Virus record (IMG/VR): IMGVR_UViG_2778261252_000009
Span: 1 to 19,703 of that record
Origin: a virus
Taxonomy: Duplodnaviria; Heunggongvirae; Uroviricota; Caudoviricetes
Reading direction: 5' to 3' (one strand)
Length of the DNA stretch: 19,703 nt
Below are positions 1 through 14,513 of this stretch, piece by piece. A model generated the notes under the pieces. That model was not told the DNA's origin. It did not search any database and was given only the letters and a program-made list of their open reading frames with translations. Numbering within the stretch: the first letter of the stretch is position 1; every line of letters begins with the position of its first letter. A program made the translations under genes and the position numbers.

Positions 1-1053
1 TTACGGGGTAATGCCAACCGCTGCCGCCACTTTGTCGCCACTTGGCAGCGTTGCCAGAGGATTGAAACGGAGCGCCGTTTCCAGATGATCTGGTGCCAGA
101 TGTGCGTAACGCATAGTCATTTTTATATCGTGGTGTCCGAGAATTTTTTGTAAGGCGAGAATGTTTCCACCCGACATCATGAAGTGCGCCGCAAATGTAT
201 GGCGCAGAACGTGTGTGAGTTGACCGCGAGGGAGCACGATAGACGTTTTTTCCATCACGGATAAAAATTGAAAATAGCAGTCTGTAAAGAAATTGAACCC
301 ATCAAGCGCCATGATCTCTTCGTAAAGCTCTTTACTGATAGGGATGCTTCTGTTTTTCTTCCCCTTCGTTCTGACAAAGGTAATTCGGTATTTGGTCACC
401 TGTGAGCGGGTAAGATTTACGGCTTCACGCCAGCGTGCGCCTGTGCTTAAGCATATCTTAACTACCAGTGCCAGAATTGGGTCCTGACGTTTGCAATCAG
501 CCAGCAATTCAACAATCTGCTCATGGGTAAGCCATGCCATCTCTTTTTCTGCGATGGTGAATTTTCGCATGTTCTCCAGTGGGTTCGGATACGACCATTC
601 GCCCAGACGGGATAGTTCGCTAAAAACACTACTTAGATAGCTTTGCTCCAGGTTAATGGTGACCGGGCTTGCTCCTTTCTTCCATTTCTCGCTGAAGTAG
701 ATCTCGCCTGTCAGGCGTTTATCTCGATAGTGGGCAAACATTTTAGAGGTGAGATCGGTTGCAAGAGGATTGCCCAGAGCGTCAACCATCAACAGCAATT
801 TGTCATAGACATGCTGCCCAGCTGTCAGAGATTTACCATGTAGTTTGAACCATAGCTCAACCACGTCTTTCAGTGTTCGACGATCCACTGATTCACCCAG
901 CCAGGGCTTTGCTTCGGTTTCTTCCATCGTGTGGCGCTCAAAAGCCAGAGCTTCGCCTTTGGTGGCGAATTGTTTACGCACCCGACGCCCACTACGTCCG
1001 GCGGGGTAACATTCGCAAAGCCATTTTCCTGTGGTGAGTTTTCGTACTGCCAT
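1..1053 (-). CDS. int: Tyrosine integrase, P2/186 family
   Basis: 350-aa ORF with ATG at 1051-1053. Contains LSTGARWREA, a catalytic Arg box, and a C-terminal HxxR...Y region (LRHTFAAHFM...GH...MTMRYAHL) typical of P2-like integrases. Confidence 0.9.
   Translation of the reverse strand: MAVRKLTTGKWLCECYPAGRSGRRVRKQFATKGEALAFERHTMEETEAKPWLGESVDRRTLKDVVELWFKLHGKSLTAGQHVYDKLLLMVDALGNPLATDLTSKMFAHYRDKRLTGEIYFSEKWKKGASPVTINLEQSYLSSVFSELSRLGEWSYPNPLENMRKFTIAEKEMAWLTHEQIVELLADCKRQDPILALVVKICLSTGARWREAVNLTRSQVTKYRITFVRTKGKKNRSIPISKELYEEIMALDGFNFFTDCYFQFLSVMEKTSIVLPRGQLTHVLRHTFAAHFMMSGGNILALQKILGHHDIKMTMRYAHLAPDHLETALRFNPLATLPSGDKVAAAVGITP
19..40. repeat. Putative attL core (left copy of direct repeat), lying inside the 3' end of int
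   Basis: 21 of 22 positions identical to 16402-16423; flanking bases diverge on both sides. Confidence 0.6.
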
Positions 1054-1126: not shown

Positions 1127-2896
1127 TCATACGTCAGGGGTAATCCAGTCGACTAAAGCCTCAATACTTTCGAAATCTGCACAGATATCTGAAAGAGGTT
1201 GTGTATCTGCTTTTGTTTTGAAATCAGCCCATACTGATTCATTTTTTTCTGTAAGACCCAAATGGTTTTCTATCGAACCATTTAGCCAAATCCAAATATT
1301 TGCATTTCTCAGTTTTGCGGCTAATGATGACAAAAATTCTCTGGCGCCGGGCTTTTGAGACATAATAGCAAATGCTTCAGCTGCGGTAGTGTTATTACCC
1401 TTTGTAGGCAAACCGGATCCATCGAGAGTGCATTCTCCATTAGCATGCATACTTCTCAAGATTTCTTTTAGTCGTAAAATATCCTCGTCATTATGTTCTA
1501 AGAAGTTGTTCCTTATTGCACCGCGGAACGCAAAATCTAAATCAACAATTGCTTTTGTAGGTATATCCATTGAATTTAGAATTTGCATCGTTTTAGATAT
1601 ACTTTCAACGGACCCTGTTTCAATTAGTGCTATTTGCATCTGACCTAATGTTTTATTTTTAACTTTGTTAAAAATAAATGGGAGCAGAGTAGTCTCTGTT
1701 TTACCTTCTGTTAGTATTACATTGTTAGCAAACAAAACTTTTGAAGACTGTGTTAATGAAAATAAATGGGTTGCTTGTGCTGGTCGTTGTTCGATTACTT
1801 TATTGACTGCTTCTTTTAATGTTAATCTGCAATGAGTGCCACGCTGACTGTTTTTTCTGATTAACACAGTGTCTTTTGCTAAGTCAGAGGTAATCATTTG
1901 AGATGAATGGGTAGAGAAAATTATTTGATATCCATGATGAGATAGTGTTTTTAGAGATTCTCTAATTTGTTCGATAGCAAATGGGTGAAGATATAACTCA
2001 GGTTCATCTATTAACAGTAGAGTAGTTGTTTTAATATCATCACCGTTGGTTATATCAGCTAAATGTCTTATTAGAGCCATCTGAATCGAACGCTGTGTGC
2101 CATGACCATAAGAAGAACAGTCACGAGCAATGCCGGGAAATGAATCTTCATATACTTTCACAGTCCCTGATTTAAATATATCCTTGAAGTCAGGGAGTTC
2201 GAAGTGTAGTTTTAAACTTATCCCAGGGAAGAAATCAGCAACTTTACTACTTATTGAATCATCAATATCATTGAGGTCCGATATTCGTTTATTACCGGTT
2301 GCAGTCATTCTTCTATTAACGGCATTTAAATGGCTTAGTATCCTTTGAGTGTGCTTCTCTTCTATTTTGCAACTCAATTCTGCCAGCAACTTACCTATTG
2401 TAGTTCCTGTTTTTGATTTTGAAGAATCATCCGCTGCATTTTCCATTGCACCTATACGTATTGGGTCTGGAAATAAAGCTTTTATCGCATTCTCAATACC
2501 CGTTGGTGATGTCCTGAATTCGTTATTTTCTGGGTTTTTAATTAATAATCTGACGTCTTTTGCACTTTGAGCACCAACAGGCTGTTGACGCTTAAATATC
2601 AATACCCCATCAATAATGTAGGGTGAAATTCTAGTTCTGTTTTCTTCTGTTAAAGCTGACAAAATATCTTCAGTAATACCCTTAACTGTACCTATAACTT
2701 CTATAGGGTTATCTGGATTAGTATAATCATCAGAGGACAAAAGTTTTTTCTTAAAAAGCCATTCAATAGCATTTAAAATCGTTGACTTACCAGCATTGTT
2801 GTAACCGATTAAAGGCGTGAATGAAGAAAAATTGATATCAATATCTTTGCAAGATCTAAAGTTTTTTATAGAAATCTTTGAAAGATGATGATTCAT
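1127..2896 (-). CDS. OLD-family ATP-dependent nuclease (N-terminal ABC-type ATPase, C-terminal Toprim); candidate anti-phage defense protein
   Basis: 589 aa. Walker A GYNNAGKST near N-terminus, Walker B LLLIDEPELYLHP, H-loop FSTHS. Toprim-like VILTEGKTE and DxD motif AIVDLDFA. Strong RBS GGAGGAG 6 nt upstream of ATG. Visibly AT-rich relative to neighbours. Confidence 0.8.
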   Translation of the reverse strand: MNHHLSKISIKNFRSCKDIDINFSSFTPLIGYNNAGKSTILNAIEWLFKKKLLSSDDYTNPDNPIEVIGTVKGITEDILSALTEENRTRISPYIIDGVLIFKRQQPVGAQSAKDVRLLIKNPENNEFRTSPTGIENAIKALFPDPIRIGAMENAADDSSKSKTGTTIGKLLAELSCKIEEKHTQRILSHLNAVNRRMTATGNKRISDLNDIDDSISSKVADFFPGISLKLHFELPDFKDIFKSGTVKVYEDSFPGIARDCSSYGHGTQRSIQMALIRHLADITNGDDIKTTTLLLIDEPELYLHPFAIEQIRESLKTLSHHGYQIIFSTHSSQMITSDLAKDTVLIRKNSQRGTHCRLTLKEAVNKVIEQRPAQATHLFSLTQSSKVLFANNVILTEGKTETTLLPFIFNKVKNKTLGQMQIALIETGSVESISKTMQILNSMDIPTKAIVDLDFAFRGAIRNNFLEHNDEDILRLKEILRSMHANGECTLDGSGLPTKGNNTTAAEAFAIMSQKPGAREFLSSLAAKLRNANIWIWLNGSIENHLGLTEKNESVWADFKTKADTQPLSDICADFESIEALVDWITPDV

Positions 2897-2939: not shown

Positions 2940-3878
2940 TTATTGTATTGTTAAGATAATGCTGGCTATAATTTGAATATCCTCAATGGAACACTCAAAA
3001 TCCTTACTCCCACCAGAAACAAGAATTTTGTTCTTAGGTAAGCGAGTTAACTCTTTTAAAGATAACTCATTGTCAATTCCTACTAACCATTTTCCATCTC
3101 TAATTAGGTGAAATTCTTTATCACATATGACATGTTTTTCTCCATTGCTTACAAACATCAAGCTGCTAGTTTCTTGCTTCGGAAGTAGACACCGATCCAT
3201 GGATAAAAAACCTGACTCGACAAGCACGCCATTGACCAAATTGAACTTATTTAAAATTACAGTGTTTTCTTCTTGTGAACTATTTGGTGTTTCGATTCCT
3301 GTAACTAGCCAGGCGAGATCCGCTTTGGTTTCTAATGCGCATTTAATCACCCAATCCGCAGGGAAAGAATCTCGCATGTATCGTGTGGCTAATGTGCTTT
3401 TTGAAATACCAAGGTGGTCGGCTAAGGCTTGGCGGGTTTTAAACCCGTAAGCATTAACAATCCTCTCTATCGTGGCTTTTCCTCCGTTAGTAAGCTCAAT
3501 GTGATTCTCAATGCGGCGCTTAAAGGATGATTGATGAGCGTTGCTGTTAAACCCCTCATGTGGGACTGTTTCATCATGTTGTTCCACATAAGGGGGGAAA
3601 CTTTCTTCTGCATTGTTAGAACCAAAGGCCAGCCATTCTAGGGATGCGCCAGTTTCCATTGAACATATAACAACCCAATCAGCAGGGAAGGTATCGCGTG
3701 CATATCTATTAGCCATTGTGCTTTGTGAAATACCAAGATGCTTACAGAAGGCTTGGCGTGATTTGAAACCATAGGCCTTGAGTATCCTCTCAATGACTTT
3801 TTGCCCTCCACGATTCTGCATGACCATAGCTTTCAGACTATCTTCAATATGGCGAAATGTGATTTTTTGAGTTGACAT
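2940..3878 (-). CDS. cI: CI-like prophage repressor with tandemly duplicated N-terminal HTH domain
   Basis: 312 aa. Two copies of a ~62-aa motif (residues 25-86 and 133-194, IERI..AYGFK.RQA...HLGIS.ST.A.RY.RD.FPADWV..C..ET.A.L.WL..G), about 39 of 62 identical by hand alignment. Sits divergent from apl-cII in the 186 cI position. Confidence 0.7.
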   Translation of the reverse strand: MSTQKITFRHIEDSLKAMVMQNRGGQKVIERILKAYGFKSRQAFCKHLGISQSTMANRYARDTFPADWVVICSMETGASLEWLAFGSNNAEESFPPYVEQHDETVPHEGFNSNAHQSSFKRRIENHIELTNGGKATIERIVNAYGFKTRQALADHLGISKSTLATRYMRDSFPADWVIKCALETKADLAWLVTGIETPNSSQEENTVILNKFNLVNGVLVESGFLSMDRCLLPKQETSSLMFVSNGEKHVICDKEFHLIRDGKWLVGIDNELSLKELTRLPKNKILVSGGSKDFECSIEDIQIIASIILTIQ

Positions 3879-6020: not shown

Positions 6021-6874
6021 GCACCATCCTGAAATGGGCGGGAAATAAAACCGCCGTAATGTCCGAACTGAAAAAACATCTTCCTGCTGGTCCGCGACTA
6101 GTTGAACCTTTCGCGGGTTCCTGTGCTGTGATGATGGAGACGGATTATCCCTGCTATCTGGTTGCGGATATTAATCCTGATTTAATCAACCTCTATAAAA
6201 AGGTTGCCGCTGATTGTGAATCGTTTATATCTCGCGCCAAAGTTTTATTTGAGATCGCAAACAGGGAGGTGGCTTATTACAACATAAGGCAGGAGTTTAA
6301 TTACTCAACTGAAATTACTGATTTCATGAAAGCGGTATATTTCCTGTATCTCAATCGTCACGGTTACCGTGGGTTATGTCGCTATAACAAGAGCGGGCAT
6401 TTCAACATTCCCTACGGTAATTATAAAAATCCGTATTTCCCTGAAAAAGAAATTCGCGCTTTTGCAGAAAAAGCCCAGCGAGCAACGTTTATCTGCGCCA
6501 GCTTTGATGAAACGCTGGCGATGTTGAAGGCGGGGGATGTGGTGTATTGCGATCCGCCTTATGACGGTACGTTTTCCGGCTATCACGCTGACGGCTTTAC
6601 TGAAGATGACCAGTATCACCTGGCATCCGTTCTTGAACATCGGTCATCAGAAGGACATCCGGTCATTGTTTCTAACAGTGACACATCCCTGATCCGTTCG
6701 CTGTATCGCAATTTTACTCACCACTATATCAAGGTAAAACGCAGCATCGGCGCAGCAGCTGGTGAGAGTAAATCAGCAACAGAAATCATTGCTGTTTCCG
6801 GGCCGCGCTGCTGGGTGGGATTTGATTATTCGCGTGGCGTGGATAGTTCTGCCGTGTACGGAGTACGTGCATGA
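6017..6874 (+). CDS. dam: DNA adenine methyltransferase, Dam family, with no adjacent restriction gene
   Basis: 285 aa. N-terminal LKWAGNK and FAGS motifs (AdoMet binding), catalytic DPPY ([10 protein letters not shown]), [15 protein letters not shown] similar to E. coli Dam. Start overlaps upstream stop (ATGA) and stop overlaps A start (ATGA). Confidence 0.9.
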
Positions 6875-9285
6875 GCCATGCCGATATGAGCAACTGCTGC
6901 GGCTTTAACGAGGCTGCCGCATCGTTCTCATGGAACAGCCCGAAAAAGGCCATTAACCCTTATCTGGACCCGGCGGAAGTTGCGCCGGTTTCTGCGCTTT
7001 CAAACCTGATCACTCTGTACGCTGCCGATAACGAGCAGGAACAACTGCGCCGCGAGGCACTGAGTGATCAGGTCTGGGAGCGTTATTTCTTTAATGAATC
7101 CCGTGATCCTGTCCAACGCGAAATAGAGCAGGATAAGCTCATTAGCCGGGCAAAGTTGGCGCATGAGCAGCAGCGTTTTAACCCGGACATGGTCATTCTG
7201 GCAGACGTCAGCGCCCAGCCCTCCCATATCAGCAAGCCGCTGATGCAACGTATTGAATACTTCAGCAGCCTGGGCAGGCCAAAGGCTTATTCCCGCTATT
7301 TACGTGAGACGATTAAGCCATGTCTGGAACGACTGGAGCATGTACGCGACAGCCAGCTATCTGCATCTTTTCGTTTTATGGCAAGCCATGTAGGGCTGGA
7401 CGGCCTGCTGATTCTGCCTGAAATGAGTCAGGATCAGGTGAAACGCCTGTCTACCCTTGTCGCTGCGCATATGAGCATGTGCCTTGATGCAGCTTGTGGT
7501 GATTTGTATGCCACCGATGACGTTAAGCCAGAAGAAATCCGCAAGACATGGGAAAAGGTGGCAGCGGAAACCCTGCGTCTGGATGTCATCCCGCCTGCGT
7601 TTGAGCAACTCCGTCGGAAAAGAAACCGCCGTAAACCCGTGCCCTATGAACTCATTCCGGGTTCGCTGGCGCGTATGTTGTGCGCCGACTGGTGGTACCG
7701 GAAATTATGGAAAATGCGTTGCGAATGGCGGGAAGAGCAGTTGCGTGCTGTCTGCCTGGTCAGCAAAAAAGCATCTCCCTATGTCAGCTATGAAGCCGTG
7801 ATGCATAAACGTGAGCAGCGCCGCAAGTCACTGGAGTTTTTCCGTTCTCATGAACTGGTGAACGAAGAGGGCGACACGCTGGATATGGAAGACGTGGTAA
7901 ACGCCAGCAGCAGCAACCCGGCGCACCGCCGCAATGAGATGATGGCCTGTGTTAAAGGTCTGGAGCTTATCGCGGAAATGCGCGGTGACTGCGCCGTTTT
8001 CTACACCATTACCTGTCCGTCACGTTTCCATTCCACGCTCAATAACGGCAGACCAAACCCAACCTGGACAAATGCGACGGTAAGACAAAGCAGCGATTAT
8101 CTGGTCGGCATGTTTGCTGCATTTCGTAAGGCGATGCACAAAGCCGGGTTGCGCTGGTATGGCGTGCGGGTGGCTGAGCCGCATCATGACGGTACAGTTC
8201 ACTGGCACCTGTTGTGTTTCATGCGCAAAAAAGACCGCCGCGCCATTACTGCATTGTTGCGTAAGTTTGCCATCCGTGAAGACCGCGAGGAACTGGGTAA
8301 TAACACTGGTCCACGCTTTAAATCTGAGCTGATAAACCCGCGCAAAGGAACGCCGACAAGCTACATCGCGAAATACATCAGTAAGAACATTGACGGGCGT
8401 GGTCTGGCTGGCGAGATCAGCAAGGAAACGGGTAAATCCCTGCGTGATAACGCTGAATACGTTAATGCCTGGGCGTCTCTGCATCGTGTTCAGCAATTCC
8501 GCTTCTTTGGTATTCCGGGACGTCAGGCTTACCGTGAACTTCGCTTGCTGGCTGGTCAGGCGGCAAGGCAACAGGGTGACAAAAAAGCAGGTGCGCCGGT
8601 ACTGGATAACCCGCGTCTTGATGCCATTCTGGCTGCTGCTGATGCTGGTTGTTTTGCCACCTACATCATGAAGCAGGGCGGCGTACTGGTTCCCCGCAAA
8701 TATCACCTCATCAGAACCGCTTATGAAATCAACGAAGAGCCAACCGCCTATGGCGATCACGGTATTCGTATTTATGGCATCTGGTCACCCATTGCAGAGG
8801 GCAAGATCTGCACTCATGCAGTGAAGTGGAAAATGGTTCGTAAGGCCGTTGACGTTCAGGAGGCGGCAGCCGACCAGGGCGCTTGCGCCCCTTGGACTCG
8901 TGGCAATAACTGTCCCCTTGCTGAAAATTTGAACCAACAAGGGAAAGACAAATCAGCTGATGGGGATACCAGAACGGATATCACCCGCATGGATGACAAG
9001 GAGTTGCACGATTACCTGCACAGAATGAGCAAAAAAGAGCGCCGGGAACTGGCAGAAAGATTACGCCTGGTTAAACCGAAACGGCGTAAAGACTACAAAC
9101 AGCGAATTACAGAGTATCAGCGTCAGCAGCTCGTCTATGAGCTGAAGTCCAGAGGATTTGATGGTAGCGAGAAAGAGGTCGATTTACTCCTTCGCGGCGG
9201 CAGTATTCCGTCAGGAGCAGGCCTGCGTATCTTCTATCGGAACCAGCGTTTGCAGGAAGATGATAAGTGGCGGGATCTGTATTAA
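6871..9285 (+). CDS. A: Rolling-circle replication initiation endonuclease, P2 gene A family
   Basis: 804 aa. HUH motif HWH at codons 444-446 (8200-8208) and paired catalytic tyrosines YIAKY at codons 498-502 (8362-8376), as in the phiX174 A / P2 A superfamily. Confidence 0.85.
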
Positions 9286-9377
9286 TTACGCGGGTTAACA
9301 ATTCGTGCTCTTAATAATACCAGGCATATCAGGCTGATGAACGTAAAAAAACGTTTTACATCAGTAAGATTATTATA

Positions 9378-9397
9378 TACTGTAAATATAAACAGTG
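9378..9397 (+). promoter_or_regulatory. LexA (SOS) box upstream of the tum/dinI-like module
   Basis: TACTGTAAATATAAACAGTG matches the CTGT-N8-ACAG consensus exactly (CTGT 9380-9383, ACAG 9392-9395), about 40 bp upstream of the ORF starting at 9438. Confidence 0.65.
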
Positions 9398-9437
9398 GTT
9401 ATGTATACAGTATTGCTTTGGTGTCATAGGAGGAAAG

Positions 9438-9626
9438 ATGCAGGACTATTTTTTGGAGTCTTTGAAGCTCCAGCGCATTGATTTTTTTCTTAAGCTTGTA
9501 GCGGCTAGTGAGTGTAGTGATGAAGAGAAGGGGCTGGCTCTGCAGTGGGTTTCTGAACTGACAGATGAACTCATGGCAAAAATCAGAACCCACGAATACA
9601 ACCGCTCAATGGATGTCATCAGCTGA
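9438..9626 (+). CDS. Small protein downstream of LexA box; possible Tum-like antirepressor component
   Basis: 62-aa ORF with RBS AGGAGG; function inferred from position only. Confidence 0.4.
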   Translation: MQDYFLESLKLQRIDFFLKLVAASECSDEEKGLALQWVSELTDELMAKIRTHEYNRSMDVIS

Positions 9627-9636
9627 GGTGACTTTT

Positions 9637-9870
9637 ATGCGCATTGAAATAATGATCGATAAAGAGCAGAAGATTAGCCAGTCTACACTGGACGCCCTTG
9701 AATCCGAGCTTTACCGCAATCTGCGCCCCCTGTATCCCAAAACGGTAATTCGTATCCGCAAAGGTAGCTCTAACGGTGTGGAACTGACCGGACTGCAACT
9801 GGACGAAGAAAGAAAACAAGTGATGAAAATTATGCAGAAGGTGTGGGAAGACGACAGCTGGCTGCATTAA
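9637..9870 (+). CDS. DinI-family protein
   Basis: 77 aa starting MRIEIMIDKEQ...LDALESELYRNLRPLYP...KIMQKVWEDDSW, resembling E. coli DinI (MRIEVTIAK...). RBS GAGG 8 nt upstream. Confidence 0.7.
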   Translation: MRIEIMIDKEQKISQSTLDALESELYRNLRPLYPKTVIRIRKGSSNGVELTGLQLDEERKQVMKIMQKVWEDDSWLH

Positions 9871-10073
9871 GAAACGTTGCTGGCGTCTGAACTTGCTTCT
9901 GGCGTCAGCAAGGTTGAACAACGAGCTGTGCGAGGCGTTAGCTCTGTGGTGCATGTCTATGCCGCATGAGATCGCATGATCGTTTGAGGATTGTTTTTGC
10001 TAAGGCCTGCCAGAACTGGCGGGCTTTTGCGTAGATCATGCAGGTGCATGAAAACCACTACATAAAGCGGGCA

Positions 10074-10099
10074 GGCGTGGCGGGGATACGAGCGCGCAC
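10074..10099. other. cos-like remnant (possible degenerate cohesive-end site)
   Basis: GGCGTGGCGGGGA matches the first 13 nt of the 186/P2 19-nt cohesive end as I recall it (GGCG[T/A]GGCGGGGAAAGCA[T/C]); the remaining 6 nt differ. Lies in a GC-rich non-coding stretch between the dinI-like gene and the cargo gene. Confidence 0.4.
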
Positions 10100-10218
10100 T
10101 TAAGGATAAATTGAAGTTGATTTAATTTTTCGACATGGATAATCTTAACTACGTATGATTATTGATAAAAAATAAACATAAAAAATTGTAGCGGATCTTA
10201 AAACTTATTAGGATTAGT

Positions 10219-11280
10219 ATGCTTAAAACAAATAAGGTATTTATTGACACACAAACGTACGTAAAGGCTGGTCTTCATTTTGAGGGGGTAGCATTTAAAG
10301 CTTTCCATGAATTATGTGCGAAAGGTGATTTAGTCTTAATTACAACTACAGTTGTAGAGAGAGAAGTAAAAGGTAAAATAGAGGAATCAATAAAGGATGC
10401 TCTGCAGGCTATAAACACAGTACAAAGAAAAGCTAGGCTTTTGAATAGTATTGATAATGGACCGCTCCATGGTTTTTTTCAGCAATTTAACGAACATGAA
10501 ATTCACGAAGCAGCACAAAAAGTTTTTGATGATTTTTTGAAAGGATGTCACGCCAAATTAGCTACAATAGAAGTGATAGATCTTAATGAGGTTTTAGATA
10601 AATACTTTGGCAAAGAACCACCATTTGGGCAAAATAAGAAAAAAAGTGAGTTTCCTGATGCAATCACTTTAGCTGCGGTAGAGCGATTTGTTAATGATGA
10701 AGATGTGTATATCATTTCTGAGGATAGTGACTTAAAAAATTATTGTGATGGTAAAAACAATCTTCATCAAATTGATTCACTTGATAAGTTTCTAGGTGAA
10801 TACAATACGCATACAAACGAATTAAGTAATAAATTGATGCAGTTTATCGAAAGCAAACGTGAAGACATAAGAGCGGACGTAATTGCCCAACTCAATGATG
10901 CCGATGGATATAACGTTTCAACTTGGGAAGACGCTGAATTGGATTCATTTGAAGTCGTCAATATTGATGACTTTGAACCATCAATAATTAAGATTAGCAA
11001 TAATTATTGTCTAGCGACCTTCTCTGTTTCTGTAGATTTTGAAGTTACTGTTTCTGGTCCAGACTTTAATAATGGGTATTGGGATAGCGAAGATAAAGTA
11101 ATGATTCCAATGGAGACAACCACACGAACTGAAGTTCAAGAGATTAGTTTCGATGTTGAAATTGAAGTTATGTATGAAATCGAGGATGGTGAATTAACAG
11201 ATATCGCATTTGATGTGAATATTGATAAGTTATCCCGAGGGATTGAGTTCTCTATTGAAGAAAATAATTTTGAATATTAA
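10219..11280 (+). CDS. Cargo protein with PIN-like N-terminal domain and acidic beta-rich C-terminal domain; candidate anti-phage or abortive-infection effector
   Basis: 353 aa. N-terminus KVFIDTQTY (Asp in first strand), later TLAAVERFVNDEDVYIISEDSDL resembling distal PIN acidic motifs. C-terminal half very D/E rich. Visibly AT-rich, flanked by an AT-rich upstream region and a hairpin terminator. Confidence 0.55.
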   Translation: MLKTNKVFIDTQTYVKAGLHFEGVAFKAFHELCAKGDLVLITTTVVEREVKGKIEESIKDALQAINTVQRKARLLNSIDNGPLHGFFQQFNEHEIHEAAQKVFDDFLKGCHAKLATIEVIDLNEVLDKYFGKEPPFGQNKKKSEFPDAITLAAVERFVNDEDVYIISEDSDLKNYCDGKNNLHQIDSLDKFLGEYNTHTNELSNKLMQFIESKREDIRADVIAQLNDADGYNVSTWEDAELDSFEVVNIDDFEPSIIKISNNYCLATFSVSVDFEVTVSGPDFNNGYWDSEDKVMIPMETTTRTEVQEISFDVEIEVMYEIEDGELTDIAFDVNIDKLSRGIEFSIEENNFEY

Positions 11281-11320: not shown

Positions 11321-12343
11321 TAATGTATATATTTCAAAATTTATAATTTCATGACCAAGCCATCTGTTTATTTCCATGAATCTTTTTTGAAGTGGTAATA
11401 GTTCATTTCTTACGAAGACGCAGCTCGCCTTCTCCACATCACCAAAACCCCCAACATTATTCGGCAAAATTCCCATCATCTGAGGCGGTACGCGGTGTGC
11501 CGCCATCATGTCATCACGGCTGACGTTCTTGATGTTCAGAAATTCATCCTTCGCCGCGACTTCTGACAACGGGATGATTTGAAGCCCGTCCTTTTTGCCG
11601 TTAGGCGAGTACATAAACAGGTTGCGGAAGTTGCCAGGGCCTTTGGCGCTTTTCATCGCATTGCGGAGGTTGTTCACATCCTCCTGGTTCTGCGCGGCAT
11701 CGGTCATGTACATGATGAAGCCTGCATGGCTGCCGTTAATGTAATACTTCCGGCGGAACAGCGTGGCGGACTCGTTGAGCAGGGCTGACGGAATGGCAGA
11801 AAGATAACCTGGTAGGCCGTAGATCTCCTGGTTGATGTCAGGTTCCATCAGATGAAAAATGCTGCCTTTCGTGAACTGATACGGCTGGGTTGTCATACCG
11901 TATTGCACAAACCAGTAGGTATCCAGATCTAACCCGCGTCGGGTGTATTTTGCCAGAGCAGGCTCAAGGGCGATAACTTCACCGAAGCGGTTCGTGCGTT
12001 TCTCCAGGTAGGCGTTACCAAATACCAGATAGTCCTGCACAAAACGTGAAAAAGCCTGCTGGCTGAGCAGCGGGTGAGGGATGTAGGTACTGGTCAGAAT
12101 GTTGCATTTCACCGCAATTGGTGAGCTGTGATGCACGGCGGCGCGGAAGGTTCGTGCCAGTCCGTCAAAGCTGACGGGCGGCTCATACCAGCGATCCATC
12201 TGTACGCATTCCACATAGTCCAGCAGTTCACGGCGGTCCAGAACAGGAACGGGATCGCCAAAGCTGAATGCTTCGGCTGAAGTTTGGCTTTTATGCTTGA
12301 GCTGATTCGTCGCCGCAGCGCGGTTTTTCTTACTCTTTCCCAT
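11318..12343 (-). CDS. Q: Portal protein, P2 gpQ family
   Basis: About 341 aa (P2 Q is ~344 aa by my recollection); ATG at 12341-12343 overlaps the stop of the upstream terminase fragment; gene order P then Q as in P2. Confidence 0.85.
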   Translation of the reverse strand: MGKSKKNRAAATNQLKHKSQTSAEAFSFGDPVPVLDRRELLDYVECVQMDRWYEPPVSFDGLARTFRAAVHHSSPIAVKCNILTSTYIPHPLLSQQAFSRFVQDYLVFGNAYLEKRTNRFGEVIALEPALAKYTRRGLDLDTYWFVQYGMTTQPYQFTKGSIFHLMEPDINQEIYGLPGYLSAIPSALLNESATLFRRKYYINGSHAGFIMYMTDAAQNQEDVNNLRNAMKSAKGPGNFRNLFMYSPNGKKDGLQIIPLSEVAAKDEFLNIKNVSRDDMMAAHRVPPQMMGILPNNVGGFGDVEKASCVFVRNELLPLQKRFMEINRWLGHEIINFEIYTL

Positions 12344-13323
12344 CAAAAAATCTCCACAATATTGCTGGTATTGGCGGACTCGCCCTGCAGCGGTTCATTA
12401 AACAGTGCGTGCATTGTTGCCCAGGCCAGATCGGCGTGGCTGGCTTCTTCGCTGCGGCTGGCTTCATAGGTCGGGCGGTTGCCACTGGCGGTGGTGGCGC
12501 GACGGATTGCCATAAATGACTGCGCTATGTCGGTGTGTCCGGCGTCAAACTCCAGACGGCGGTGGCTGATAATGTCGTAGGCCTTGAGTACCAGGGCGTT
12601 TTTGACGTTGGGGTTGTAGACAAACTCCCGGACGGCAGGAAAAAACACTTTCACGTTCTCGTAAACCCCGTGACCAACGCCGGTTGAGTCGATGCCGATA
12701 TAGGTCACGTTGTACTGTTCGGTCAGTTTTTTGATGGCGTCAGCCTGGGCGCGAAAGTCCATCCCGCGCCACTGGTGACGCTCAAGAATGCGGAACTTGC
12801 CGCCCGGCACGGCTGGCGGTGCCACCACCACGCATCCGGCACTGTCGCCGTTCTGCGTACCTTTCGCCGGGTCATAACCGATCCACACTTCGCGCCAGCC
12901 AAACGGGCGCAGTGCCAGTGCATGAAAGTCGGTCCAGACTTCCCAGCTGTCCACCATGCACGCCTGCAGCTCGCTGAGCGGGAACACGGACGCGAGATCG
13001 TCCACGAACTCGCACATCAGCAGGTTCTGGTATTCGTCCGGGCTGTACTCCATGCGCAACTGGTCAAGGTCGAACAGGTTGCAGCCGCCGCGCACCGCAT
13101 CTTCCACGGTGACTATCTGGCGGTATTGCCCGTCTGCGCACAGCAGGCCGGGGGCCAGATTGCTGTGGGACAGGTCGATGTCCACCTTATCGGCTTTGTT
13201 GCGCCCACGGTTGAACAGCGCACCGGACCAGAACGGATACGGCAGCAGTAACTCGAACCAGCAACGCGTTGTCCTGGCTGGCTGGTGCACCACTGGCACT
13301 GCTGCGACGCGGGCTTGCTTCAT
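12343..13323 (-). pseudogene. P: Terminase large subunit (P2 gpP family), N-terminally truncated; only distal ATPase region plus nuclease domain retained
   Basis: 326-aa ORF with no Walker A; contains the RNase-H-like nuclease motif VWIGYDPAKG...D. P2 P is ~590 aa by my recollection. The ORF's 5' end overlaps the tape-measure fragment on the opposite strand. Confidence 0.75.
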
Positions 13324-14513
13324 CGGGCAATGCTGCGGGTTTACTTACTGCGCCGTTGTCGTCTTTGCGCCGCACGGCATCACTGACGGGAAATGTCCTG
13401 AAAACTGTAGCAGGTGCGCCGGTTGCACTTTTGCGGTCTGGATTATCCGGTTTACGTGCTGTTGCTGTGATGTTTATGAATCCTCTGGCGGTACTGCGCG
13501 GTGGACTGACCGCCGCAGGCACGGTGTTGCGAGTACTGGCATCTGGTCCACTGGCGATGCTGCGCGTTGCCCTGTATGCCATATCTGGTCTGTTAGGTGC
13601 TCTGCTCAGTCCGATAGGTCTTGTGGTTACTGCACTGGCAGGCGTGGCGCTGGTTGTCTGGAAATACTGGCAACCCATCACCGCATTTCTCGATGGCGTG
13701 GTGGAGGGATTCAAAGCGGCGGCAGGTCCCATCAGTGCTGCATTTGAACCACTTAAGCCTGTGTTTCAGTGGATTGGCGACAAAGTACAGGCGCTGTGGG
13801 GCTGGTTTACTGATCTGCTGACGCCCGTTAAGTCGACCTCTGCCGAACTGCAGAGCGCAGCGGCAATGGGGCGACGATTCGGGGAGGCACTGGCGGAAGG
13901 GCTGAATATGGTTATGCATCCGCTGGACTCCCTGAAATCTGGCGTTTCCTGGTTGCTGGATAAACTCGGCATTGTCAGTAAAGAGGCTGCAAAGGCGAAA
14001 CTGCCGGAAAGCGTGACGCGTCAGCAACCTGCGACGGTGAATGCAGACGGTAAAGTGATGATGCCATCGGGTGGTTTTCCATCATGGGGATATGGCTTTG
14101 CGGGGATGTATGACAGCGGCGGCTATATCCCGCGCGGGCAGTTTGGCATCGTCGGTGAAAACGGGCCGGAAATTGTTAACGGCCCGGCAAACGTGACCAG
14201 CCGGAGAAATACAGCTGCACTGGCTGCCGTTGTTGCCGGAATGATGGGCGTTGCTGCCGCGCCTGCAGAGCTTCCACCGTTGCATCCTTTGGCACTTCCC
14301 GCGAAAGGCGGCGAAGCGATGGTGAGTCGTGCAGCCACTGTGCCGCCCGTTCAACGGATTGAGGCACCGACGCAGATCATCATTCAGACGCAGCCAGGAC
14401 AAAGTGCGCAGGATATTGCGTGGGAGGTGGCCCGCCAGCTTGATGAACGTGAACGCAGGCTGAAGGCAAAAGCCAGGAGTAACTACAGCGATCAGGGGGG
14501 ATACGACGCATGA
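13269..14513 (+). pseudogene. T: Tail tape measure protein (P2 gpT family), C-terminal fragment
   Basis: 414-aa ORF, Ala/Leu/Gly-rich with GENGPEIV near the C-terminus, followed by U and D as in P2 (T is ~815 aa in P2 by my recollection). The 5' boundary of genuine T sequence is uncertain. Confidence 0.7.

Follow-up and report, generated by a model that had tools for sequence, protein, structure and literature searches.

The question raised by this locus is what two small genes behind a LexA box, set between replication gene A and a cos-like site, do for the prophage that carries them. The answer we favor, with high though not complete confidence, is that these genes form the SOS operon of a Fels-2/PSP3-type prophage, in which the product of the first cistron, TumA, would act as an antirepressor and that of the second, TumB, belongs to the DinI family. 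An earlier note on this DNA, made from its letters alone, had read it as a LexA-controlled induction module. What it had observed holds and its reading is supported, and we return to its claims where the evidence on each is given.

The window (the whole stretch of DNA analyzed, 19,703 nucleotides) is a P2/186-like (Peduoviridae) Escherichia coli prophage lying between rcdA and ybjL, a chromosomal site it has in common with DuoHS of E. coli HS. Gene order around gene A agrees with that of 186, Fels-2 and PSP3. The surroundings of the operon are these:

1-1053, minus strand: int
1127-2896, minus strand: OLD nuclease gene
2940-3878, minus strand: gene for a 186-type CI repressor of 312 aa, the presumed target of TumA
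Between CI and gene A: apl-like, cII, fil, DUF5347, DUF2732, DksA-type zinc finger and Dam genes
6871-9285, plus strand: replication gene A, the upstream neighbor of the operon, annotated as a replication endonuclease in the identical D5 prophage
10219-11280, beyond the two small ORFs: PIN_12 protein gene
After PIN_12: portal gene Q (minus strand), then a truncated terminase gene P fused to a tape-measure fragment
Right end of the window: gpU, gpD and ogr, then host ybjL

The copy of the prophage in the window is defective. Only 326 aa of terminase P remain, fused to the C-terminal portion of the tape-measure gene, and the capsid, lysis, baseplate, fiber and sheath genes are absent from the prophage's gene content. 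With head, lysis and most tail genes gone, induction cannot yield virions, and the switch could here do no more than start early gene expression, excision and replication. By BLAST, the window and strain VE-V10-F are 100% identical both over 9286-10218 and over the internal deletion junction. Only two of 5426 complete genomes (VE-V10-F and VE-V11-M) have this junction at 100% identity, so the deletion looks recent, and retention of the operon therefore needs no selective explanation. The prophage is intact in strains D5 and elppa10. That of D5 equals the window at 100% over 9286-10218, and D5 and HS have the same DinI-like protein (WP_001217575.1). The operon itself is 100% intact in the window, the same as the copy in strains with complete prophages.

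The control region and the two cistrons are laid out as follows:

9355-9360, plus strand: candidate -35 hexamer TTTACA, in an SOS promoter that corresponds to 186 p95
9378-9383 or 9376-9381, plus strand: candidate -10 region, TACTGT (17-nt spacer) or TATACT (15-nt spacer), respectively
9378-9397, plus strand: LexA box 1, TACTGTAAATATAAACAGTG, with the core CTGT-N8-ACAG at 9380-9395
9393-9412, plus strand: putative LexA box 2, CAGTGGTTATGTATACAGTA, with the core GTG-N10-CAG at 9395-9410
9438-9626, plus strand: ORF1, predicted antirepressor gene of tumA type, 62 aa, with Shine-Dalgarno AGGAGG at 9428-9433
9637-9870, plus strand: ORF2, tumB or DinI-like gene, 77 aa, with Shine-Dalgarno GAGGTGA at 9625-9631

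A perfect CTGT-N8-ACAG operator had been claimed upstream of the two ORFs, and it is there, a single time in the 19.7-kb window. Taken alone the motif is weak evidence, because it specifies only eight bases and 42 of 200 shuffled sequences contain at least one. The 20-mer carries the case: TACTGTAAATATAAACAGTG differs from the LexA consensus TACTGTATATATATACAGTA at three positions, is the only such match in the window, and has no counterpart with three or fewer mismatches in any of the 200 shuffles, on which ground a chance origin of the box was rejected. The operator lies 42 nt 5' of the two cistrons. Box 1 is identical in E. coli HS DuoHS, Fels-2 and phage 813R9, and each of the seven divergent relatives aligned has a LexA box ahead of its tumA or tum.

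Judged by its sequence, the operator is a double LexA operator of the colicin type. The core of box 2 shares one base (a G) with that of box 1, as in colicin operators; its left half is degenerate and non-consensus (GTGG). The 43 nt from 9372 to 9414 are 86-88% identical to sequence lying some 45 nt ahead of the colicin N and cloacin genes on Col plasmids. The colicin and cloacin operons have the same arrangement, CTG-N10-CAG and then GTG-N10-CAG with one G in common, and differ in that they drive a bacteriocin and have an unrelated upstream -35 region and an unrelated downstream leader. At colicin double operators two LexA dimers bind, and derepression is tight and late (PMC2994835). Occupancy of box 2 by LexA here is putative, by likeness to those operators, and occupancy of both boxes together in the window is likewise putative. 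Close relatives vary in box 2 only at three central spacer bases (9403-9405). The double operator belongs to Fels-2-type phages (the window, Yersinia MLG42 and Klebsiella phi4.1), whereas the 186, PSP3 and ESSI-2 types have a single consensus LexA box. The primary Fels-2 literature aside (Bunny et al. 2002), we regard the double operator as a mildly new point.

Box 1 overlaps either candidate -10. A generic promoter scan of the window made no call at this place, and so we infer the promoter, positioning it by analogy with 186 p95 and by conserved spacing. TTTACA, exactly 17 nt and TACTGT are kept in Yersinia MLG42 and Klebsiella phi4.1 while the sequence of the spacer has diverged, and the annotation of 186 p95 gives TTCACA, 18 nt and TACTGT, with the LexA box over the -10.

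Both small ORFs have the good ribosome-binding sites ascribed to them: AGGAGG ends 4 nt before the ATG of ORF1, and GAGGTGA, which overlaps the ORF1 stop codon (TGA, 9624-9626), ends 5 nt before the ATG of ORF2. The start of ORF2 is at 9637; the frame from 9638 runs into stop codons. Two minus-strand ORFs lie over the module, at 9399-9593 and 9619-9954; given how strongly the plus-strand frames match their families, we discarded both as shadow ORFs.

Of the two products, ORF1 is the harder to place. It has no match in Pfam, NCBIfam or PADLOC, and essentially all records label it 'hypothetical protein', or occasionally 'levan regulatory protein'. In pairwise BLASTP, ORF1 aligned with neither 186 Tum nor PSP3 TumA, and identity to the N-domain of 186 Tum is only about 20%. 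The link to the N-half of Tum depends on profile searches, synteny and a short conserved motif. ORF1 matches phrog_698 (E=3.6e-38), phrog_8554 (2.4e-8) and phrog_1993 (2.2e-3), and residues 1-70 of 186 Tum match the same three profiles: phrog_1993 at 1.5e-23, phrog_8554 at 3.4e-12 and phrog_698 at 5.9e-6. These matches are collinear; on phrog_698, residues 6-44 of Tum fall on profile positions 6-44. With hhalign, an alignment of the ORF1 family places residues 3-43 on 3-43 of Tum (P=5e-4), and a multiple alignment has a conserved core of C26 and A34-L35. Yersinia phage MLG42 provides a bridge, with a TumA that shares 84% identity with ORF1: in tblastn, 186 Tum residues 1-145 run in one piece over the phage's tumA-tumB pair. 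The profile matches, the collinearity and this tblastn result together lead us to regard ORF1 and ORF2 as Tum in two parts, each half with a cistron of its own.

ORF1 is strongly conserved, with homologues in 482 clusters at 90% identity, none of which brings a Pfam domain or a telling name. It is identical at 61 of 62 positions to the DuoHS tum, ECHS_RS04495, a 189-bp gene directly 5' of the DinI-like gene in E. coli HS. AlphaFold2 models it as a two-helix hairpin (pLDDT 90). A sequence search of the PDB with the ORF1 family profile returned nothing meaningful, and when the model was compared with viral structures by Foldseek, no match was significant and those obtained were generic hairpins (best E=0.7).

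That ORF2 is DinI-like, as the earlier note had recognized, is clear from the profile searches: it covers positions 1-63 of the 63 in Pfam DinI (PF06183) at E=6.6e-23 and 81.3 bits (cut-off 24.2), and it matches phrog_189 at E=1.5e-29. Its alignment with E. coli DinI (PDB 1GHH, residues 1-77; E=2.7e-6) runs over the full length, and it is 78% identical to PSP3 TumB and 41% identical to residues 71-145 of 186 Tum. With 42.7 bits, it falls below the NCBIfam NF007893 equivalog cut-off of 111, so we treat it as a phage DinI-like paralogue and not as host DinI. The most likely role of TumB, which we assign from family membership, is to bind RecA filaments and adjust how strong the SOS signal is or how long it lasts; in our reading, TumB is not the antirepressor.

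ORF1 and ORF2 are in different frames, with a +1 offset (9438 versus 9637). Since the frames differ and each cistron has its own Shine-Dalgarno, the split of tum here does not reflect a recent nonsense mutation. A hairpin at the junction (9615-9632) was flagged as terminator-like by a scan. It is no more stable than expected from shuffled sequence (z=-1.08), and we make no claim for it as an attenuator or coupling element.

The presumed target, the CI of the window, contains Phage_CI_repr twice and Phage_CI_C once by Pfam, which amounts to a tandem N-terminal HTH domain, and it has no S24 peptidase domain by the same search. It is 55% identical to the CI of DuoHS and 36% to that of 186. When the extra N-terminal HTH was used as a query, it was matched at ≥80% coverage in 14 of 5426 complete genomes. 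This tandem-HTH form is unusual, and a mildly new point. Given how the protein differs from DuoHS CI (55% identity, an extra HTH), its sensitivity to TumA is an assumption on our part.

Much of what can be said about how the module works comes from its relatives. In Fels-2 and PSP3, tum is split in two (Lemire et al. 2011, PMC3121763), and for PSP3 the antirepressor activity is placed in the upstream gene (personal communication cited in PMC3121763). The PSP3 record describes tumA as 'similar to 5' end 186 tum; UV induction of prophage' and tumB as 'similar to dinI and 3' end of 186 tum', so the division of a Tum module into two ORFs, suspected from the sequence, is real. PSP3, Fels-2 and DuoHS all resemble the window in having, between A and cos, an antirepressor cistron of 60-62 aa followed by a DinI-like cistron of 77 aa. 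The pair is STM2728 / STM2726.1 (STM2727) in Fels-2, and ECHS_RS04495 with the DinI-like ECHS_RS04500 in DuoHS. PSP3 is the more distant of the three: its TumA is only about 14% identical to ORF1, just one LexA box precedes the pair, and tumA and tumB are in frame. In both PSP3 and Yersinia MLG42, tumA and tumB share a frame with only a stop codon between them. Fels-2 and DuoHS show essentially no difference from the window within the module (ORF1 98% identical, promoter-operator identical), and the Fels-2 region is 97% identical to the window at the DNA level. The window departs from these two prophages in its downstream cargo genes, its type of CI and its large deletion.

Experiments exist for these close relatives. 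Exposure to the mutagen MX changed expression of the Fels-2 operon STM2726-STM2727-STM2728; STM2727, which the study lists with the LexA regulon, was induced 5.5- to 14.8-fold (PMC2225428). In E. coli HS, an in-frame deletion of ECHS_RS04495 abolishes the lysis and the viral foci that mitomycin C otherwise elicits from DuoHS, and lexA(Ind-) does likewise (PMC12055606). The tum deletion fuses the start and stop codons of the gene, and the Shine-Dalgarno of the DinI-like gene overlaps the tum stop; because the deletion could thereby alter translation of the DinI-like gene, TumB may contribute to the phenotype. Together with the lack of an S24 domain in CI, the effects of the tum deletion and of lexA(Ind-) in DuoHS support the view, already put forward in the earlier note, that CI is inactivated by an antirepressor and not by repressor cleavage.

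The archetype is 186, in which SOS derepresses the LexA-regulated p95 and Tum then sequesters CI reversibly (PMC7708051). As far as Shearwin et al. (1998) is relayed in PMC3121763 and PMC7708051, the biochemistry of Tum with CI is known for 186 Tum only. The earlier note had stated, correctly, that 186 induces through a LexA-repressed Tum with a DinI-like C-terminus: the annotation of the 186 record and the match of ORF2 to Tum both agree with this. The comparison of both ORFs with 186 Tum that it had proposed comes out in favor of homology, by profiles and hhalign for ORF1 and by pairwise alignment for ORF2. The likeness to 186 extends to the LexA box over the -10, an N- and a C-domain that are homologues of ORF1 and ORF2, a position between A and cos, and a CI of the non-cleavable type. 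The differences are that 186 Tum is one polypeptide of 146 aa, that its operator is a single LexA box, and that its operon includes an extra gene, orf97 (p95-tum-orf97). The 186 record also annotates internal starts in tum, giving a C-terminal 'truncated Tum', as induction modulators. The module in the window has no fused Tum of 146 aa and is the split tumA/tumB variant.

Two further groups help to separate the roles of the cistrons. In the Gifsy/Fels-1 phages, a LexA-repressed dinI homologue is followed by a gfoA/gftA antirepressor gene, and a non-cleavable repressor is inactivated by protein-protein interaction (PMC3121763). These phages differ from the window in their reversed gene order, in their unrelated antirepressors and repressors, and in being lambdoid. 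ESSI-2-like phages have a LexA-boxed tumA-like gene and no DinI gene, from which we gather that the first cistron suffices as the core of the module.

Put together, the mechanism would run as follows. In an undamaged cell, LexA dimers on the double operator (9378-9412) would cover the -10 and the start of a sigma-70 promoter, so that the operon stays off. Once DNA is damaged, RecA would be activated, LexA would cleave itself and the operon would be transcribed. TumA, at 62 aa a predicted two-helix protein, would then bind the 186-type CI non-covalently and stop it from binding its operators; with CI off, the rightward early operon (apl, cII, fil ... A) would be derepressed. TumB, from the second cistron, would act on RecA filaments and so modulate the SOS signal. 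In near-identical relatives, induction of the operon by DNA damage and the requirement for tumA and a cleavable LexA have been demonstrated; direct binding of TumA to CI in the window is presumed.

Could the roles be the other way around, with the DinI-like ORF2 as inducer or obligatory partner, ORF1 as an accessory or leader peptide, and 186 Tum in effect reassembled from two chains? The two halves are one polypeptide in 186, the linkage is tight (the ORF2 Shine-Dalgarno overlaps the ORF1 stop), and the deletion of ORF1 in DuoHS could be polar on translation of ORF2. We nevertheless consider this arrangement quite unlikely. A LexA-boxed tumA-like gene exists without a DinI gene in ESSI-2-type phages, the activity in PSP3 lies in the upstream gene by the personal communication already mentioned (PMC3121763), the DinI-like C-terminal fragments of 186 are annotated as modulators and not as inducers, and the DinI homologues of Gifsy are separate from the antirepressor (PMC3121763). 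A related idea, that ORF1 and ORF2 are joined into a Tum-like protein by programmed +1 frameshifting or readthrough, strikes us as extremely improbable. The genes do share a frame in PSP3 and MLG42, with just the stop codon between them, and the frame of ORF2 is open upstream to 9565, overlapping the 3' end of ORF1 by 62 nt; here, however, the cistrons are in different frames, no recognizable slippery site lies 5' of the stop codon, ORF2 has a strong Shine-Dalgarno and ATG of its own, and the junction hairpin is no more stable than shuffled sequence (z=-1.08).

A different kind of doubt concerns what the operon is for in a prophage that can no longer make virions. The module might have left induction behind and become an SOS accessory, host-beneficial or selfish, that modulates RecA in the manner of DinI or acts in trans as an antirepressor on other P2-like prophages. 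Salmonella prophage antirepressors do act in trans on co-resident prophages (PMC3121763), and the capsid, lysis and tail genes are gone here, yet the operon has lost nothing and is identical to that of complete prophages. The junction's occurrence in only two of 5426 complete genomes points instead to a recent deletion, after which no selection is needed to explain an intact operon, and we give the accessory role only a slim chance. An SOS operon for prophage induction, with TumA as its antirepressor, is the reading we keep.

Beyond that reading lies a wider picture, which we offer as possible but doubtful when taken as a whole. The Fels-2-type operator would have been acquired from Col plasmids, or be shared with them by exchange, giving a higher damage threshold and later induction than in 186 or PSP3; TumA would target the conserved N-domain of CI and act in trans on heteroimmune relatives; and the deleted prophage would serve as an SOS trans-inducer, or as a non-lytic switch for the OLD/PIN island. 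The second element has an observation behind it: TumA is nearly invariant across prophages with differing CI proteins (N-terminal domains about 77% identical, the rest about 44%, with a tandem-HTH form in the window), for which reason it may target the CI N-domain.

Little of this counts as discovery, since the mechanism is established for 186, PSP3, Fels-2 and DuoHS. The module is already known in these phages, to which only the double operator and the tandem-HTH CI add something mildly new. The earlier note had missed this prior knowledge, along with the double operator and the defect of the prophage. The practical value is one of annotation: the antirepressor has no Pfam or NCBIfam family and goes unnamed in databases, and it is the tumA-type gene that decides whether these prophages respond to DNA-damaging antibiotics. 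The region has DNA matches in 1280 of 5426 complete E. coli genomes (about a quarter). The colicin-like double operator, for its part, offers a small and testable reason why P2-like prophages differ in their induction thresholds.

Three features lie between the end of ORF2 and the PIN_12 gene:

9873-9915, plus strand: strong hairpin directly 3' of ORF2, without a U-run
10005-10028, plus strand: GC-rich hairpin followed by TTTT, perhaps the operon terminator, perhaps part of the cos flank
10074-10092, plus strand: cos-like cohesive-end sequence, the 19-mer GGCGTGGCGGGGATACGAG

The module had been placed between gene A and a cos-like site, and so it is. GGCGTGGCGGGGATACGAG agrees with the annotated 186 cos, GGCGTGGCGGGGAAAGCAT, at 14 of 19 positions, and the left flank cataaag.gggca is shared. 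Folded as RNA, 9868-10040 reaches -66.7 kcal/mol (z=-2.86), and an inverted repeat resembling the hairpin at 10005-10028 is found in the cos-proximal right end of 186.

The tum operator, the pair of overlapping LexA boxes that precedes the two-gene tum module of this prophage, lies within a 43-nt stretch (9372-9414) that is 86-88% identical to the SOS promoter-operators located ahead of the genes for colicin N and cloacin. Those promoter-operators reside on small Col plasmids whereas ours belongs to a prophage, and this degree of sequence identity suggests a double LexA operator cassette that is common to, or has been exchanged between, the tum module and Col plasmids. The module itself has a natural 'TumA only' form, which is found in ESSI-2-like phages. 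There, a tumA-like gene has one consensus LexA box, and a DinI-like gene is absent downstream of it at both loci compared:

L010, 1201-1413: tumA-like gene
L011, 1201-1380: tumA-like gene

In the window, the DinI-like gene (ORF2) is followed by a very stable hairpin that lacks a U-run and is conserved within the region common to the window and its relatives:

9873-9915: imperfect hairpin, directly 3' of the ORF2 stop codon

The CI repressor of the prophage has an unusual architecture when set against its relatives:

2940-3878, minus strand: CI repressor gene, 312 aa, two Phage_CI_repr domains and one Phage_CI_C domain

The two helix-turn-helix (HTH) domains are in tandem (residues ~23-88 and ~130-195), with the single Phage_CI_C domain C-terminal to both, whereas the CI proteins of 186 (192 aa) and of DuoHS (189 aa), the E. 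coli HS prophage at the same chromosomal site, have one HTH domain each. In strain D5, RefSeq lists this two-HTH CI as a single CDS, and a query spanning the extra N-terminal HTH domain was matched by 14 of 5426 complete E. coli genomes (coverage ≥80%, identity ≥99%).

Two further genes occupy positions where related phages differ; a cos-like site lies upstream of the second:

1127-2896, minus strand: gene for a full-length nuclease of the OLD family (ATPase/TOPRIM); PADLOC hit Old, E=9e-235
10074-10092: cos-like cohesive-end sequence GGCGTGGCGGGGATACGAG, left flank 186-like
10219-11280, plus strand: PIN_12-domain protein, 353 aa, between cos and portal gene Q

The nuclease gene is inserted between int and cI, where DuoHS has only small hypothetical genes. 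The PIN_12 protein had no match in PADLOC; because its place is taken by different genes in each of Fels-2, DuoHS and phage 813R9, the site between cos and Q looks like a variable cargo/defence hotspot of P2-like phages. The cos-like sequence is upstream of this cargo gene, and the left end of packaged DNA would therefore hold the cargo.

The prophage has also suffered a large internal loss:

~12343-14513: region spanning the internal deletion, junction near 13238

At the junction, terminase P keeps only its C-terminal half (326 aa), which is fused to a C-terminal portion of the tape-measure gene; the genes for capsid, lysis, baseplate, fibre, sheath and tube are lost. At 100% identity, it occurs only in E. 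coli strains VE-V10-F and VE-V11-M; strains D5 and elppa10 carry the same prophage without the deletion.
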